Position numbers and translations under genes: made by a program. 64,000 nucleotides of DNA from Ascidiella aspersa. Its lineage: Eukaryota. The notes under the pieces were generated by a model, which did not search any database, was not told the origin of the DNA, and saw only the letters and a program-made list of their open reading frames with translations. How positions within the stretch are numbered: the stretch's first letter is position 1; every line of letters begins with the position of its first letter. Of the stretch, positions 47,401 to 63,895 are shown one piece after another. The stretch is from the NCBI GenBank assembly GCA_963924565.1, contig OZ004607.1:9486001-9550000 (forward strand). Reading direction: 5' to 3'.

Positions 47401-50400
47401 AATAGCGCTGATTGGCATGGTTATTGGATATGTGCAAACCTTTATTTGGAAATGTAAAATCGGTGAAATGGCTCGCATTTTCAAATACAATGTCGAACTA
47501 AATGTTAAGAAACAAGAATTTTCCTGCCCCTTGCTAGTAAATGAGGAATTTAGAGGACTGACTTTTAGATAATATTTATATTTTCAAATGCATTGCAAAT
47601 AGCCACATTTTTGCCTTATGTTAAGATATTTAGAAAGGTAGATAAAATGAAAAAAAAACAGCTAATATTGGTTTAAAAGCTAGATTTTTTATTACTTTTA
47701 ACCGGTACAATGGTACATCAAAATACAAAAATACGTCAATATTAGTAAAATATATATCTATATTTTTTTGAAACACAAAAAGACTGAATGTGCTTAGTAA
47801 TCAGATTTACGCTACAAGCGGCGCAAGGGACATACAGGAAAACGAACTTAAAAAAATATTTTCCATATAACCAATAATCGAGTAAACCACCCTTTTATGA
47901 GAGTTCTAAAAGCACTTATAACATAGCTAAATTCGAGTAACTCTTGGTAAAGACCCGACGTTGATCTTTATCATTCTTCTTCATGGCAGGTTGCACCTCC
48001 AGCTGATGCAGGATCGCGGATCGATCACCAAGAAGCGATCCGGGACGTTGGCGGATGCTGAGATGAAGCGGAACCAGTTGAAGCAGCAGGAGCAGATGGA
48101 CGACCTCAGAAGACAGCAGGTAAAAAACAAAGAACGATCGAGTGTGAAACCGTTCTTCCTATGTAATTCCAGATTTGAAAAAAATTGTCATAAGTATACA
48201 CAATACTTTTCTTTATCATCATCTTTTAATCTTCCATTTCATTCCTCTTAATTTTTATTTTTTTTAAGTCTTTTTTATTATCTTTACGCTATTTAACTTT
48301 ATCATTTAACCAGTTATCTATATTGTTTCTTTATGTGATCCATCTTCTGTTTCTCCTGATCATCCAATTCTTTACTTCCTCCTCCTAGCAACAATTCAAG
48401 TCGGAACGCGAGCAGTTCAACCGCACCAACGAGCGCTTCCAGCGATCCATCGACCGCGAGCGACAAGAAATGGATGATGAGAAGAGGCAGATCCTCCGGA
48501 GCAAGAAGGAGATCGACGAGCGTCTGGAGGAGGTCACCCGCCTAAAGGATGAGCAACAAAAGGAGCTCACTCGCCTCCGGGAACTTCAGAGAAGGTCCCA
48601 GAACGAGATGCACACCTCTGCCTCCTCCTCCGCAATCTCTGCCTCCGCTTCCAACCGGAACAACAGCAGCAACAACCTGGACACAATCGACTCCAAGTTA
48701 TCCCTGGATGCGGCTGGAGCAAAGTCCTCTTCTTCGGCTCTCTCCGGGAGCAAGTCCTTCTCCAGCCTTCACGTGTCCAATTCCGCCGCCAACGCCGACC
48801 CATCAGGGAAACCACCCGCTTCACCCACGTACGCGAGCGCCGCCGATTACCCCCGGACTTTCCCCGGGATGAAGAGAGACTCGGCGTCGATTGTTCCAAA
48901 CCCGGGAGCGGGCCACCACCCACTTCCCATTCATCTGCAGTACAGCGCAACGAACCAGGTCACCGCTTTGCAGGTGAGTCGTGCGCCGTCTTTTTGCTAA
49001 ATTTAGTGTTTATTGACGATTTGTTTTTTCCTATTTTGATTGCAGTTTTAATAAAGGGATGTTTTATGACGACCTACAACGATTTTTCGTTAACCTGGTA
49101 AAAAACGATATTACCGTTCTGCTTTAAGCTGATGTCTTTTAATTTACATGCTTAGGACTAAATTCTACTTTAATTTAATTTTATGTAGACTTTATTTTTT
49201 TGCCCTATCCCGACGAACCTTGATTCGTTTTTACTAAGACTACAGCTAGCTTCTAAATCTAAAATCTAAATGCTATTAACATTTACCCGAAAATTCGGCT
49301 CTTTGTAAGATATATAAAATAATGTCAGTAAAACTTGTCGTATTATAATTGATGTTTTTTCTAAAAATTAAAAAACGTAATCCTAATAAAAACACGCATC
49401 TTATTGAAAAAACAAAAACGATGTTCTCTTAAAAGAAACAAAGTGTTCCTTGTTATGTAAAAATTACAAAAATGAGGCCGTTTTCGCGGACAATCTCAAA
49501 CGCTACTTCCCGTAAAAAAAAAAACTAACACGCTGTTTTTTTCGTGCACCGACGAAGGCCCCGAAGCCGCAGACCCTTCCCTTGAAGATCGCCACCCAGG
49601 GCAAACCGGAAAAGCACGGCGTCCACCAGATCATACCAAGCAAGCTGTCCAAGCTGGCCTCGGGCGGTCAATCGTCCGGCCACCAGCACCCGTCCAGTAA
49701 GAAGCTACATATTGTGTAGAAGTAAGTCGGCCCCGGGCCCCCAAACCCCCCTGGCATCCCCCCTTCGCTCGCCCCACCTTTTCGCGGCGAGCGATGCAAC
49801 TCACTACTCACTGACGATTGAACTCGCACTACTCGGTCATGCGGCATGACTCGCGTCGTCTTTACTCGCACGCGCGAAATCGCGTCGACTGCGATGAAGA
49901 CTGCGAGCTAGCTTGATTTGTTTGCCCTACTTTTGGCTTGTTTTTCTTTTTTTCCGGCCTGGTATTATTTCCCGAAAACATGCCTTTCTAACATTTTTGT
50001 TGTGTTGATATTCACCGCATTGATTTTGTTTTCAATTTTTTTTTTTAAAGTCACAATCACATTTCACTAATAACTCTATCGTTATGTTTTACGAGTTTTA
50101 TTACAACCATCAAAAAAAAAATCTTTATTTGTCCCAAGTTTCTGACATTTATGTTGTAGTTAAACTTAAAACAAAAAAAAAGTGCTGTTAAAAAAAGCTT
50201 TTTTAAACTTTTTAAAAAACAATACAACGCATTTCTTTAATCATTTTAACTCAAAAGACAAAAAAAAATTAACTTTGTTACTCTGAAAACCCTTGTAATC
50301 AAAAATAGGTTTGAAATTGAACCCAACGGACCAAAATATCTTCCAGTAAACCATATATGCTTCCTGCCTCTGTCAAACTTACTGGCCTGAGCTTGCATGT

Positions 50401-54300: not shown

Positions 54301-55629
54301 CAAATAATATATTTTATAAAGCGTACGTATAACTCCAGAACTGTTTAATAAGCCCAACGTTGGGAAATAAAAGTGATTAAGTTATGAACAGTAACAAAAA
54401 AATCAAATCATCACCAGCCGTTGTTAAAATACCTCGCTATTTGTTGTGAGTTTCGTTGGTAACTCTGTGTGAAATCGAATTCAAAATGACTAACTTTTAA
54501 TGTGTAATTTAAAGCTTGTCATTTTATGAAGGTGACTTGTTGAATTATTTTCACTATAATATATAATGTAAGATGTATACTTTATAAACTATGCTTCTTG
54601 CCAGGCCACTTTCTTGTTTTAACCAAAGGTGCCCTAACCGTTTTACTTACTATACTATACACAGTAAGAAAGTATAGGATAAACAAAATGTGGTTGAATT
54701 CTAGACCAGCGCCGATGTGTGTTCAGAAGCTACGCAGCATGCCTGGCAATTTTCTTTATGATAATGAGAAGTATATTTTAACCATAAGGGCCTGAACTGT
54801 TTTACTAACAATACATCTTTTTGTGGCCGTATTTGTCTAATTCTAAATAGAGTAATCAGGTGGCACTATGTAAAGACAGATTGTGTTGCATTCTCGACAA
54901 ATTTTTACACAACCGAATTTTATCTGGTCAAAGTAGAAATGAAAGCATTTAAAATGCACTTGTAGAAACACAAGCGGGAGCAAAAGGTCTAACATAACCT
55001 TGATAAAGTCCTACATATCCGCACTGACTACACAGTATCGGATAGACAAACTATTCTATTACCAAGACATAACAAATCATAAACATGGATGGTTTAAATA
55101 TTTATTTAAAGAGAAACTTTCCCATACAATTCTTTAAATGTAAAGGATCCATTCCATTAATTTGTTGCTGAAATTTATTTTATATATTTAATCTTCGAAG
55201 ACCAACATGAAAATTAAATTTATAAAAATGTAAATTGATATTAATAAATTATTTGATTGAAACTATGTCTAACTTAAATAATTCTAAAACTTTCTACATC
55301 ATGAAAGACACAATTTATTTGCATTTTTTTAATCTACTGCTATAAATAAATTTACTAACTGATAGTCATTATATTTATCATTTATTTCTTCCTATATATT
55401 GTCACTCACAAAAACCAAAAGGAATCAATAGTAGTATAAATGATAAAGATCATTAAAACCTAGAGCATATATTGACTGTTAATTTTTTTATAAAATTTTT
55501 TTTTTTATTTCTGTCTCTCTTTTAAAAATAATGTAAATACTTAAATCATTAATGCAAAATAACTCGAGCAGCCACATATTTTTAGTGTATTACTAGTTAA
55601 CAGTTTGAAAGAATAATACCAAAACAAGA

Positions 55630-56121
55630 ATGAATCCACACAATCTTCAAGTTGAGCAAATGGAAATCACATTGGATGAAGGATCTTCATCGGAAGACAG
55701 TCGAAGATTCGACGAACTAATTGGGATAATACAGGACACCATGATGAGTGAATCATTTCAGCAGATCCAGTACAACTTCATGGAAAAGTACTACACTGAG
55801 TTTGAGGACACAGATGAAAACAAGTTCATCTACACAGACATTTTCCAGGAGTATTCTGCGATCATTGAAAATTACCTAGAATCTCAGTTAAAACTCCGAA
55901 TCCCAGGATTTTCCATGACTAAATTCTCGGCCTCACTAAATGCGCACAAGCACGAGATCACCGACGACATTTTCGAAATGTTCTTGACCTTCACTGACTT
56001 TCTCGCATTCAAGGAAATGTTCATCGATTATCGCGCTGAAAAGGAGGGAAGGCACGTAGACCTGGCACAAAACTTTCTGGTACAGCCCTTGGTGCCTTCG
56101 TGTTCTGTAACTTCGAGTTAA
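55630..56121 (+). CDS. ARL2BP: ADP-ribosylation factor-like protein 2-binding protein (BART), 163 aa, single coding exon
   Basis: FMEKYYTEFEDTDENKFIYTDIFQEY...RIPGFSM...DIFEMFLTFTDFLAFKEMFIDYRAEKEGR is nearly identical to the ARL2BP signature as I recall it. Confidence 0.96.
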   Translation: MNPHNLQVEQMEITLDEGSSSEDSRRFDELIGIIQDTMMSESFQQIQYNFMEKYYTEFEDTDENKFIYTDIFQEYSAIIENYLESQLKLRIPGFSMTKFSASLNAHKHEITDDIFEMFLTFTDFLAFKEMFIDYRAEKEGRHVDLAQNFLVQPLVPSCSVTSS

Positions 56122-59672: not shown

Positions 59673-62243
59673 ATGACAACTGTAGCTGTTGTAACATGGA
59701 AACTGAAGCTAAAGTGTGTGATATTTGCTGGATTCGCTTTCACCGTAATATTTTGGATCTCTTTGCAACGGTATGAAAAAGGCTTAAAATTTGAGTTCGT
59801 AGCCAATTTTCGTGATGTTTAATTTGTATCACACAGTTTAAATCAGTGGTAAAACTAAACTGGAATAGTAAAATAATTTCTCGTGGAACGGCGGTGCGGT
59901 TAAATAATTATCAGGTAGGCCCATATGCGAACCGGTAAATAATGTTATTTTTACCTGCGGCCATGTCCCTTTTTCACCAGTCCATCCCACCATCTCCTTA
60001 ACTGTGATTTAACTAAGATTTAAGTTGCATTTTTGTGCATTACATCGAACGATCGCCTTTTTGGCTAAAATTGTCAAACATTACACTTTAGGTACATACA
60101 ACATATTCATATATTACTCAAAATAACAAAATTTGTACGGTAGTTTAATTTAACAAAATTTGCACTTTATAGAGTTTATAAGTTTACACGACGTACCATG
60201 TCGTCTATGGGACGATCAGATTACTACAAACGGACAAACATGTAGCAAAAACAGATAGAAGTTCGCGTGAAACTCAAAACGATTTTTGCATAATAGTGAA
60301 GTTAGCAAAAATATAGTTTGGGGGTACATTACCTGATGGCTCCTTCAGGATCGACCCATGGCTGTAAGTTATAAAAGATAATTTTGTTATTGAAATACAC
60401 TTGATTCATTTAGGTCCCGTTCCGATTATTCAACGAGGCCTAGGTACCTACAAATTTCGAGGCGACCCAATAACCGAAGTCCTAGCAACCAGAATTCAAC
60501 TTCGTCACGGCCTAGCAACCGATCCGAAGTTTTTACAGGTCAAGCGAAGGTTCAGAAAGGAAAACCAAATCCAGCTGTTAACCTTTCTTTATTCCCAGCT
60601 AAGGTAAAAGCAATATGATGTTGCTGACCTATTGCAGAGATCGGGTTTGACATGCTTCTTCAAACCTATGCCAGTGTTGTAATGATCTAGGTCATTTACT
60701 AGACTTAAGTACACTTTTATCGCTGTTCTTAAATACCTTGACTTGACTTAAGCAGTTTAGGCAAATGACTTGACTTTAAGTGAAAAGCTATTGTTTTAAA
60801 TATTTTTGAGTAAAATTTGGCTAGTTGTTCACTGCAGTTTCCTCCTGTAAAACAGTTTGCTCGCTGAAATATTACGCTTTTTATGTTTGCTAATATACAT
60901 CTCGCTCGGGATCAAACGAGTTTGCCAATTTAAATAGTTTAAAATTTTATTCAAATGACTTCATTGACTTGGACTTGAGTCATTTCAAAATTACAAAATT
61001 ACTTACGTACAAACCTGACAAATGCTACAAGGCGATGCGTAGCACAAAGCTGTAAGTCAAAATAATAGTTAACAGGGCTAATATTAGTTACAAAGCATTT
61101 TTTTATTTGTTAAAACAATCAAACAGTCAACTTTACACGCTAATCGACCGAGCTTGGCTGCAGTGCTAAAAATACGAAAAAAATCTTAGGGGCAGTGTAT
61201 GAACTCAAAAAAGTCTTGATACTTCACTATGTAGGTGATTCTAGCATGGGACACTTTCAAGACCCCAATGGTACCGGACAGCAGTCAATGTGGCAAATGC
61301 AAGGTCACGCACGACCGAACAAAGGTAAAAACGGTTTTCGTTTTATGCTAGCGATTTATCAATTGTTTATGGTGGGCGTTAATGATATATTTTGAAATTA
61401 TTTGTTGAAGGGGGGTTTATGAAAGTTTGTTTATCTTTGACAATTTTAGCTGGACCATAAGGATACAGCGGCTGTGGTAATTTACTTCAGGGAGTTATTA
61501 GAGAACTACCCCGTGAAGAACAGCAGGTACAGGCCTATATACATTTTTATGACAAAGTACGTGCAGTTTATTCTAAAAAGTTAAAAAAACGCCTACTTTG
61601 AAAAATCCACGTGGACCAAACGTTAAGTGAATCAGTTGGACAAAAACGGTTAAAGTACAGCAAAATAATGGGATATATATAGTGGTTATATTATATGGAC
61701 AACTTACATTTCAGTATAAAAAAATATCAAAATCAGTTTAACCCTACAAACAATTAATCAAACCTTATACTCACGGCTGTTTTAATTAAAATGTGGTCTG
61801 GTCCAATTTTATTTTTTTTCACTGTGTTAAATTACCTCGTTACAATATTGTCATCCAAGGCTATATAAGGTGTACGATTGCTTCATTTTGGTTTATAGGC
61901 TTTATTCAAAAGTTAGCTCCAGGAAACGGTTTTACATCATAAAACAAAAAGCGCATTAAGAGATCAAGATTATATTTTCTCAATAAGGCCTCATTAGATC
62001 GGCTTTAGACACTGCTGACACTTTCACAAGCGAAATTCGTGTGCAGAAACATCCAAGTAAATGTACAAGTTTTTTTAAACCACTGTTAAAATAATAAACT
62101 AAAGGTTGTCCGAACAGGAGGTCTTCGCAACTATTTGTATGGTGGAGTCTTCAAAGCCCATCCAGAACACAGAAAACACTTCAAAGTAACAACAGCCTCT
62201 ATAAGCTCGATGATTACTATTTCAATGCAACTCTGTCGTACAG
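59673..62243 (+). CDS. GT10 alpha-1,3/4-fucosyltransferase-like type II membrane protein, 5' partial (continues beyond the window)
   Basis: Exons 59673-59770, 60414-60603, 61235-61324, 61450-61526 and 62118-62243 are all in phase. They encode an N-terminal TM (CVIFAGFAFTVIFWISL), a Ser/Arg/Pro stem with N-glycosylation sequons, then VILAW...CGKCKVTHDRTKL...AAVVIY...RSSQLFVWWSLQSP...YFNATLSYR. This matches the GT10 N-domain motifs ILxW, CxxTxDR, QxWVWxxxESP and FNxTxSYR. Confidence 0.88.
60690..60990. repeat. Interspersed gacttga/caagtc(attt) repeat family member
   Basis: Clusters of gacttgactt/aagtcattt. Related patches occur at ~5120-5200, ~52408-52490 and ~57335-57410. Confidence 0.45.
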
Positions 62244-62444
62244 GTTTGTAGCCCGAGTTGTACTGTAATATCAACGTGTTTGAGCTATCCTTAAATATGC
62301 CTTATTCCGCTTTTGCTTTTACAAATATAAAATACATACTGTTTGACTGTTCTTGAATAATTGACATTTAACCAAGACCTTTCACTTTATCTTTATTTTA
62401 TTTTGTAGCTAAATGTAAGGACTGTTTGGGCGTATAGGTTAAAT

Positions 62445-62826: not shown

Positions 62827-63895
62827 CAGTGGCGTATCCAGGGGGGGGAGGGGGTTTGGACCCCCCTTTTTGAAAGTGACATTATTGTTTTTTGTTCGTT
62901 TTGTCAGCGTTTAAACTCACCGTCCGAAGCTACGTGTTTTCAAATGTAACTGGGTCACGCGTCTTAAGCTAATGCGAAACCAAAATCAAACGCAAAAGTT
63001 TCTCGCTGTTTGTTGTCTGCGTTAATATCAGATGTTCAGATGTTGGTGTAAGACTGGGGTCGGCAACCTACTGTGATTCATCAGGCCCGTCGCCTCTTTG
63101 ACATACTATACACGAGTTCATTTTAAATACTTTTTGACTATTTTAACTACGTAAGTGCGTGCAAAAAATTTTCGCGCTTGGCGCGAATGATCTCACTACG
63201 TCCGGTTTGTTAACGTTTTGATGCTGTATTTTGAACTAGATCAGTCCTTCTTTACCGTTGCGCCGTGGAAAGCTGCCAAGTGCGTCGCGGACAAACCGAA
63301 AACGTATTCAAAAATATTTGACATTTATTTTGTAACATTTTTTATTTTCGGCAATGTAATAAAAACTTGCAAGAAATTTAAAAGAAATGCCGTTATACCA
63401 AAAAAAAATAACGCTGAACTAGATTAACTAACTATTAGAGTTATCGCGTTTCTTCGAAGTAGTTTTATATGTTGCGCTAATCGAAACACCCGGGAAAACG
63501 ATCTTCGTTTAGTATTGCAGGTGGCGAGAGACGTGCTTGTAATTTAGCCTAGTCCCATACATGGATCTACCAAAATCAATCACATATATTTCACGGTCTT
63601 GGTTTAGTTATTGGCCTGTAAACCTTCGCACACTAAGCGGTTTCGCAGCTGGCTGGCAGGATTGTCGATAACGCACGTGTTCGCTTTGCGTCTAAATGTT
63701 CGCTTTTGCTGGGCGTTAATTGGCTGTTTCGGATGATTTTTTTTCTTGTTTGTGACGTCATTACCATCGCTATTTTATGACGTCATATCCGTCACTGTTT
63801 TATGACGTCATTAACCTCAGACGAAAAAACAACGGGGAATTCCCTAAGTTGAAAATTCGGTACCCCCCCTTTTTGAATTTCTGGATACGCCCCTG
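62827..63895. mobile_element. Non-autonomous hAT-type element (~1.07 kb) in a fucosyltransferase intron
   Basis: TIRs CAGTGGCGTATCCAG / CTGGATACGCCCCTG, with a perfect 8-bp TSD tttgaagg at 62819-62826 and 63896-63903. Confidence 0.88.

Follow-up and report, generated by a model that had tools for sequence, protein, structure and literature searches.

The GT10 fucosyltransferases share a glutamate base that is near-invariant from bacteria to plants and humans. A review names Glu137 of human FUT9 as the likely base and assigns donor and transition-state roles to Arg202, Lys256, Asn195 and Asn246; the role of the Glu, like the mechanism as a whole, is proposed and not validated (PMC12717137). 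Loss of the base is costly in two other GT10 enzymes: the E158A mutation abolishes the activity of Arabidopsis AtFUT11 (PMC12929593), and Glu95 mutants of H. pylori FucT are virtually inactive (PMC4202792). In simulations of AtFUT11 the acceptor hydroxyl touches the pyrophosphate, and proton transfer comes after the transition state (PMC12929593). POFUT1 functions without an acidic base, with the amide residue Asn51 at the expected base position and the donor beta-phosphate acting as the base (PMC12717137). It belongs to another family, however, and its acceptor is a protein Ser/Thr, so that it is a mechanistic precedent only.

The available text of PMC11949838 contains nothing on the base residue. 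In the literature consulted, no E-to-Q mutant data for any GT10 enzyme turned up. Nor did literature searches, mostly over openly accessible papers, return a natural GT10 that lacks the base, a pseudo-fucosyltransferase of that kind or a GT10 that uses the donor phosphate as its base. Biochemical data on the ascidian FUT6/FUT9-like GT10 clade were likewise not found in these searches. Glu-to-Gln changes usually inactivate general bases.

The gene described here, from the ascidian Ascidiella aspersa, has Gln in place of this Glu. It lies at the end of the 64,000-nucleotide stretch of DNA that was analysed (the window, C1:9486001-9550000) and runs past it. By sequence, the gene belongs to the GT10 alpha1,3/4-fucosyltransferase family of ascidians. 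Seven predicted coding exons, with AG/GT at every junction, give a protein of 459 amino acids with no internal stop and with Gln at residue 169. The splice model is a prediction from sequence, with no RNA reads supporting it. The exons, the Gln codon and a repeat in the last intron are:

59673..59770, + strand: coding exon 1, with the ATG, a short tail on the cytosolic side and then a type II membrane anchor at about residues 15-31; GT donor; predicted
60349..60363, + strand: possible 15-nt microexon (second exon), phase 2/2, optional; AG/GT ends; predicted only
60414..60603, + strand: Ser/Arg/Asn-rich stem exon; open frame, AG/GT ends
61235..61324, + strand: exon starting the acceptor-binding domain, a strand with the conserved Trp106 and then CxxC; predicted
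61450..61526, + strand: acceptor-binding domain exon (TAAVVI strand); AG/GT ends; the sister gene has a homologous exon
62118..62243, + strand: catalytic-base motif exon, phase 2/2, AG/GT ends; Pfam Glyco_tran_10_N match
62152..62154, + strand: CAA codon for Gln169, which corresponds to FUT9 Glu137, the proposed catalytic base
62827..63895, no strand assigned: high-copy element in the last intron, 1069 bp, with terminal inverted repeats and an 8-bp target-site duplication without mismatch
C1:9550046-9550829, + strand: last exon, past the window end, 784 nt, with the GDP-fucose domain (PF00852, E 5e-47)

In the predicted model the membrane anchor (the most hydrophobic 17-mer begins at residue 15, mean KD 2.36) is followed by a polar stem, and the frame is still open when the 15-nt microexon is left out. 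Translated from 62119, the motif exon reads RSSQLFVWWSLQSP...FNATLSYR. On its own (42 aa) it matches Glyco_tran_10_N (PF17039) at E 5e-06 with 27.4 bits, slightly below the whole-protein cut-off, and a genome scan gives a match to this N-terminal acceptor domain above the cut-off at C1:9548104-9548271 (34.1 bits). The last exon scores 160 bits with PF00852, against a cut-off of 23.9, and its FEN...DY.TEK motifs are intact. It is one of 63 matches from 72 candidates in the PF00852 genome scan and was found there as a match that begins 161 bases beyond the window end.

A preliminary description of this DNA had called the frame, the anchor and the splice phases intact. The same is true once the last exon, past the window end, is included: it is free of stops and frameshifts and retains the ENx..DY.TEK motif, so the gene is not an ordinary pseudogene. 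The classical marks of one (stops, frameshifts, broken splice sites) are absent from the reference and from the differences listed for two further samples, X2 and X9.

The element in the last intron has terminal inverted repeats that start CAG(T/G)GGCGTATCCAG, and read depth over it is more than 100 times that of the gene. It resembles a non-autonomous hAT-type element. The neighbouring gene upstream, on the + strand, has a single open frame at 55609-56121 that encodes an ARL2-binding BART domain (PF11527, E 4e-32) and is a useful synteny anchor. An open frame of 203 aa at 48389-49000 (+), coiled-coil-like and then Ser-rich, is probably an exon of an upstream gene; Pfam returned no significant match for it.

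The Gln codon is present in every read set that covers it. A contig set possibly from the source sample (X1) covers the codon with 0 differences. For another sample of the same study (X2), one contig across 61900-62460 has five differences, all intronic, and leaves the codon unchanged. Raw DNA reads from a third sample in another study (X9, depth about 3-4) show a silent C>T at 62131 as the sole exon difference, and a low-depth contig (X5) over 62146-62262 shows 0 differences. The earlier reading of CAA at 62152-62154 within an intact exon is thus borne out by the sequence and by several read sets; GAA, which would have marked an assembly error or a rare allele, was looked for, and X1, X2, X5 and X9 have CAA instead. 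The motif exon occurs once in the 9.5-kb locus. The gene is single-copy in the assembly and has no recent duplicate, with closest DNA matches of 69-70% and even read depth across its unique parts. With the same codon in all four sets and a single motif exon in a single-copy gene, it is highly improbable that an assembly error, a rare allele or an alternative Glu-bearing exon explains the Gln. An artefact is refuted for the samples examined, and a Glu allele may still surface in wider sampling.

Two forms of rescue at the RNA level were considered and rejected. RNA editing is ruled out by reasoning, as C-to-U editing of the codon gives a stop and A-to-I editing gives Gln or Arg. As for alternative splicing, a nearby alternative acceptor merely drops one Arg codon, and skipping the motif exon keeps the frame and loses the motif.

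Human FUT9 (PDB 8d0o series) is the best solved-structure sequence match of the last exon (E 7e-21), and it shares the type II anchor with the gene product. The closest named relative, the Phallusia mammillata fucosyltransferase A0A6F9DCP6 (P0002, 49% identical), which marks the genome as ascidian, was used as a structural proxy for the spliced protein; its AlphaFold model (pLDDT 89) has FUT9 as its top Foldseek match, with E 1e-18 and a TM score of 0.72 on the target. The WWSVESP of P0002 aligns to WMNLESPTH of FUT9 (8d0o), in which the Glu is chain residue 100; with an offset of 37 (a hand count) this is FUT9 Glu137. At this position, which is also that of AtFUT11 Glu158, the gene product lacks the Glu base and has Gln169. 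The preliminary description had given the family motif as W-x(3)-E-S-P. The W-x(3) portion is not constant among family members, and E-[S/T/P/N/G/C]-P is a better description.

By alignment to FUT9 the donor side is complete: WFVSN (Asn249), Arg259, FEN (Asn308) and YITEK (Glu318, Lys319) provide the equivalents of FUT9 Asn195, Arg202, Asn246 and Lys256, with the Glu directly before Lys256. On the acceptor side the Tyr168 and Phe329-Trp330 equivalents are present by alignment. Besides the Gln, the gene differs from FUT9 in having Arg for His141, at a position that is variable within the clade, in the length of the Phe73 loop, which is unmappable by sequence, in an ascidian-clade C-terminal insertion and in having several coding exons. 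The loop after Trp106 is also about 3 residues shorter than in P0002 and in the sister paralog on C8.

No replacement acid stands beside Gln169 in the sequence. The only acids in the motif exon are two Asp residues 19-20 codons downstream, the second of which is also present in relatives. Judged by alignment alone, the possibility raised earlier that another acidic residue takes the base position finds no candidate adjoining the Gln. Three columns that are otherwise invariant in a 12-row clade alignment are changed in this gene alone, and each lies at or next to an active-site position: the E>Q itself, an S>A that follows Asn308 and a W>F that precedes Trp447. The S>A state occurs in 44 of 326 rows and the W>F state in 21 of 274, Glu-bearing relatives among them, so these two changes need not be compensatory.

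Gln at the base is a rarity. Sixty stretches of the gene's own genome were examined and gave 52 motif-exon matches, of which two are partial, with the site outside them; the 50 that cover the site have Glu in 49 cases and Gln in one, this gene. A set of 315 database proteins gave 232 aligned stretches across the site, with 227 E, 3 D, one each of H and V, and no Q; the V and one D sit at fragment starts. A Gln-bearing ortholog was not found among the best 150 of 8637 matches in one search or in 79 of 424 metagenome loci, where the motif was read in 38 loci (21 stretches, all E), and a further weak ortholog search with one candidate gave the same result. As these searches gave no ortholog with Gln, the change from Glu to Gln has no fixed date and may be young.

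A tree of 23 sequences over 296 columns places the gene beside a paralog at C8:1.97 Mb (UFBoot 95), then with a paralog at C2:30.5 Mb (100) and then with Phallusia P0002 (97), all of which bear Glu. Because the gene nests among Glu-bearing genes, the Gln arose on its own branch, and its descent from Glu-bearing ancestors is shown at the sequence level. Over the motif exon and last exon the gene is 64% identical to the C8 sister and 59% to the C2 paralog, and the identity to P0002 is 49% over 364 columns. Splice positions around the motif exon are the same as in these relatives from the ascidian FUT6/FUT9-like clade, but all of the relatives have kept the Glu.

The GT10 family is expanded in this genome, with at least 50 motif-bearing copies, tandem clusters (for example at C2 27.5-27.7 Mb, C4 10.48-10.51 Mb, C6 9.7-9.8 Mb and C9 5.07-5.10 Mb) and some broken copies. 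A stop interrupts the motif exon of one copy at C2:27735273 and of another at C2:27589106, and a copy near C9:15295600 is frameshifted; these broken paralogs keep Glu wherever it is readable. Other ascidian GT10 proteins also depart from Glu. Two from Clavelina and Ciona, XP_076821230.1 (P0206) and XP_002123254.3 (P0245), have Asp at the base and intact donor motifs. The Clavelina protein CAK8682057.1 (P0261) has His; like the present gene it lacks the Glu, but its donor motif is eroded (LED/YITAE), whereas here the donor motif is kept.

Several observations bear on constraint. GC3 of the gene is 0.61 (0.58 and 0.67 in two sister paralogs), against an intron GC of 0.31-0.36, and identity to the sister is 37% at fourfold sites against the 64% given above. 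By these measures the gene is old and its branch was under long constraint, at a time not datable relative to the Gln. The haplotypes with Gln differ by 5 silent SNPs and 3 replacements (R59P, T374I, D424E), where a ratio of about 1:3 would be expected (p 0.017-0.038, pN/pS about 0.2). The test is fragile, resting on 8 sites from the 40 of 347 differences listed; up to 3 further X2 differences could be coding, and p would rise to about 0.1 by hand calculation were every one of them a replacement. The divergence of X2 is 0.29% at replacement sites and 0.84% in introns (Fisher p 0.03). The indels among the differences listed are 0 in coding sequence and 5 in unique intron parts. These statistics suggest that the gene is still under purifying selection. 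Diversity flanking the codon is about 1% among haplotypes that all carry Gln, and thus shows no trace of a very recent sweep. One of the three replacements, T374I (last exon, beyond the window), is found in all X2 and X9 coverage and abolishes a predicted N-glycosylation sequon of the reference.

Expression and branch length give a different picture. An RNA run (X10) had 0 exon reads in 7.8 million reads (about 6% of the run; one sample, without a paralog control), which sets an upper bound of about 1 FPKM; RNA reads of this run did fall on the intronic repeat. The gene's branch is 1.8 times that of its sister (0.455 vs 0.258), with 35 private changes against 21 (p 0.08). The longer branch and the shortened acceptor loop fit equally well with relaxation and with a new function. 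Branch dN/dS between paralogs (7 taxa, 297 codons) was tried and set aside: branch lengths reach about 50 and fourfold-site identity is 32-39%, and the omega values are unusable because silent sites are saturated. For the Gln branch as a whole an omega of 1 can be rejected (p 0.001), a result that says nothing on the date of the change. The early judgement that this is not a decaying gene is thus suggestively supported by the 5:3 ratio of silent to replacement SNPs, the lack of coding indels among the differences listed and the GC3 of 0.61, with the RNA run without exon reads standing against it.

We consider the best explanation, with a probability of roughly 45%, to be that this intact, single-copy ascidian GT10 gene, with Gln for Glu in every sample, encodes a catalytically crippled Golgi protein that is still constrained, binds GDP-fucose and transfers fucose poorly or not at all. 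The predicted product would sit in the Golgi as a type II protein, fold like FUT9, bind GDP-fucose normally and probably bind an acceptor glycan. With no carboxylate at the base position, it would fail to deprotonate the acceptor hydroxyl, and if the family mechanism holds, the SN2-like transfer would be stalled or very slow. The Gln amide is isosteric and may preserve the binding geometry. Such a protein might hold donor or acceptor glycans, or partner active paralogs, and thereby tune fucosylation. Cosmc-type non-catalytic glycosyltransferase paralogs have an enzyme fold and work without catalysis, in a family and fold that differ from those of this gene. By analogy, the inactivity of the base-loss mutants AtFUT11 E158A (PMC12929593) and H. 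pylori Glu95 (PMC4202792) strengthens the case for a crippled enzyme. The preliminary description had proposed a catalytically dead or altered Golgi protein; what the sequence supports of this is an intact GT10 lacking its base, and the decoy, lectin or regulator roles that it suggested would be speculative.

The gene could instead be in early decay, a possibility to be taken seriously though we doubt it. A one-base G>C change in a partly redundant family of about 50 genes would then have been fixed by drift, leaving the gene functionless, with stops and frameshifts yet to come. Birth and death are evident in the family, in the stops of two C2 motif exons and the frameshifted C9 copy, and the more degenerate Clavelina P0261, with His at the base and LED/YITAE, gives an example of a GT10 further along. 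The lack of exon reads in X10 and the longer branch also fit decay, and GC3 and the 64% identity may reflect just the earlier history of the branch. Against this, SNPs are skewed to silent among the differences listed, the indels listed are outside exons, and haplotypes about 1% apart around the codon all have Gln. A conservative first change precisely at the base would, moreover, be one of several hundred possible inactivating ones.

It seems unlikely, though the chemistry offers a route, that the protein is an active enzyme with another mechanism or substrate. Gln169 might act as a proton shuttle with the donor beta-phosphate as the base, as in POFUT1, perhaps on a different acceptor. All the donor and transition-state residues are retained, the three private changes cluster at the active site, and the acceptor loop is remodelled. 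POFUT1 is a precedent for catalysis without an acidic base (PMC12717137), and the hydroxyl-pyrophosphate contact in the AtFUT11 simulations would suit such a mechanism (PMC12929593). However, loss of the Glu inactivates both AtFUT11 (PMC12929593) and H. pylori FucT (PMC4202792), Gln is found in no other GT10 among the 232 stretches, and the S>A and W>F changes also occur in Glu-bearing relatives.

The crippled but constrained Golgi protein remains our preferred reading. Tentatively, and at something short of even odds, we would also suggest that this Gln-base GT10 is expressed and selected, either as a pseudo-fucosyltransferase, a binder of GDP-fucose or glycans and a regulator of its many active paralogs, or as a catalyst with the donor phosphate as its base. 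By its sequence the gene is a GT10 that lacks the defining feature of an active one, and the Gln case is so far confined to one species. For a residue as widely conserved as this Glu, a natural variant that has Gln in its place and an intact donor site offers a direct way to test its role. If the protein is inactive yet selected, it would be a pseudo-glycosyltransferase of Golgi fucosylation and would offer a natural scaffold to trap donor-acceptor complexes. If it is active, there would be a second mechanism within GT10, and if the change is neutral, it would be a common first stage in the loss of a gene from an expanded family.
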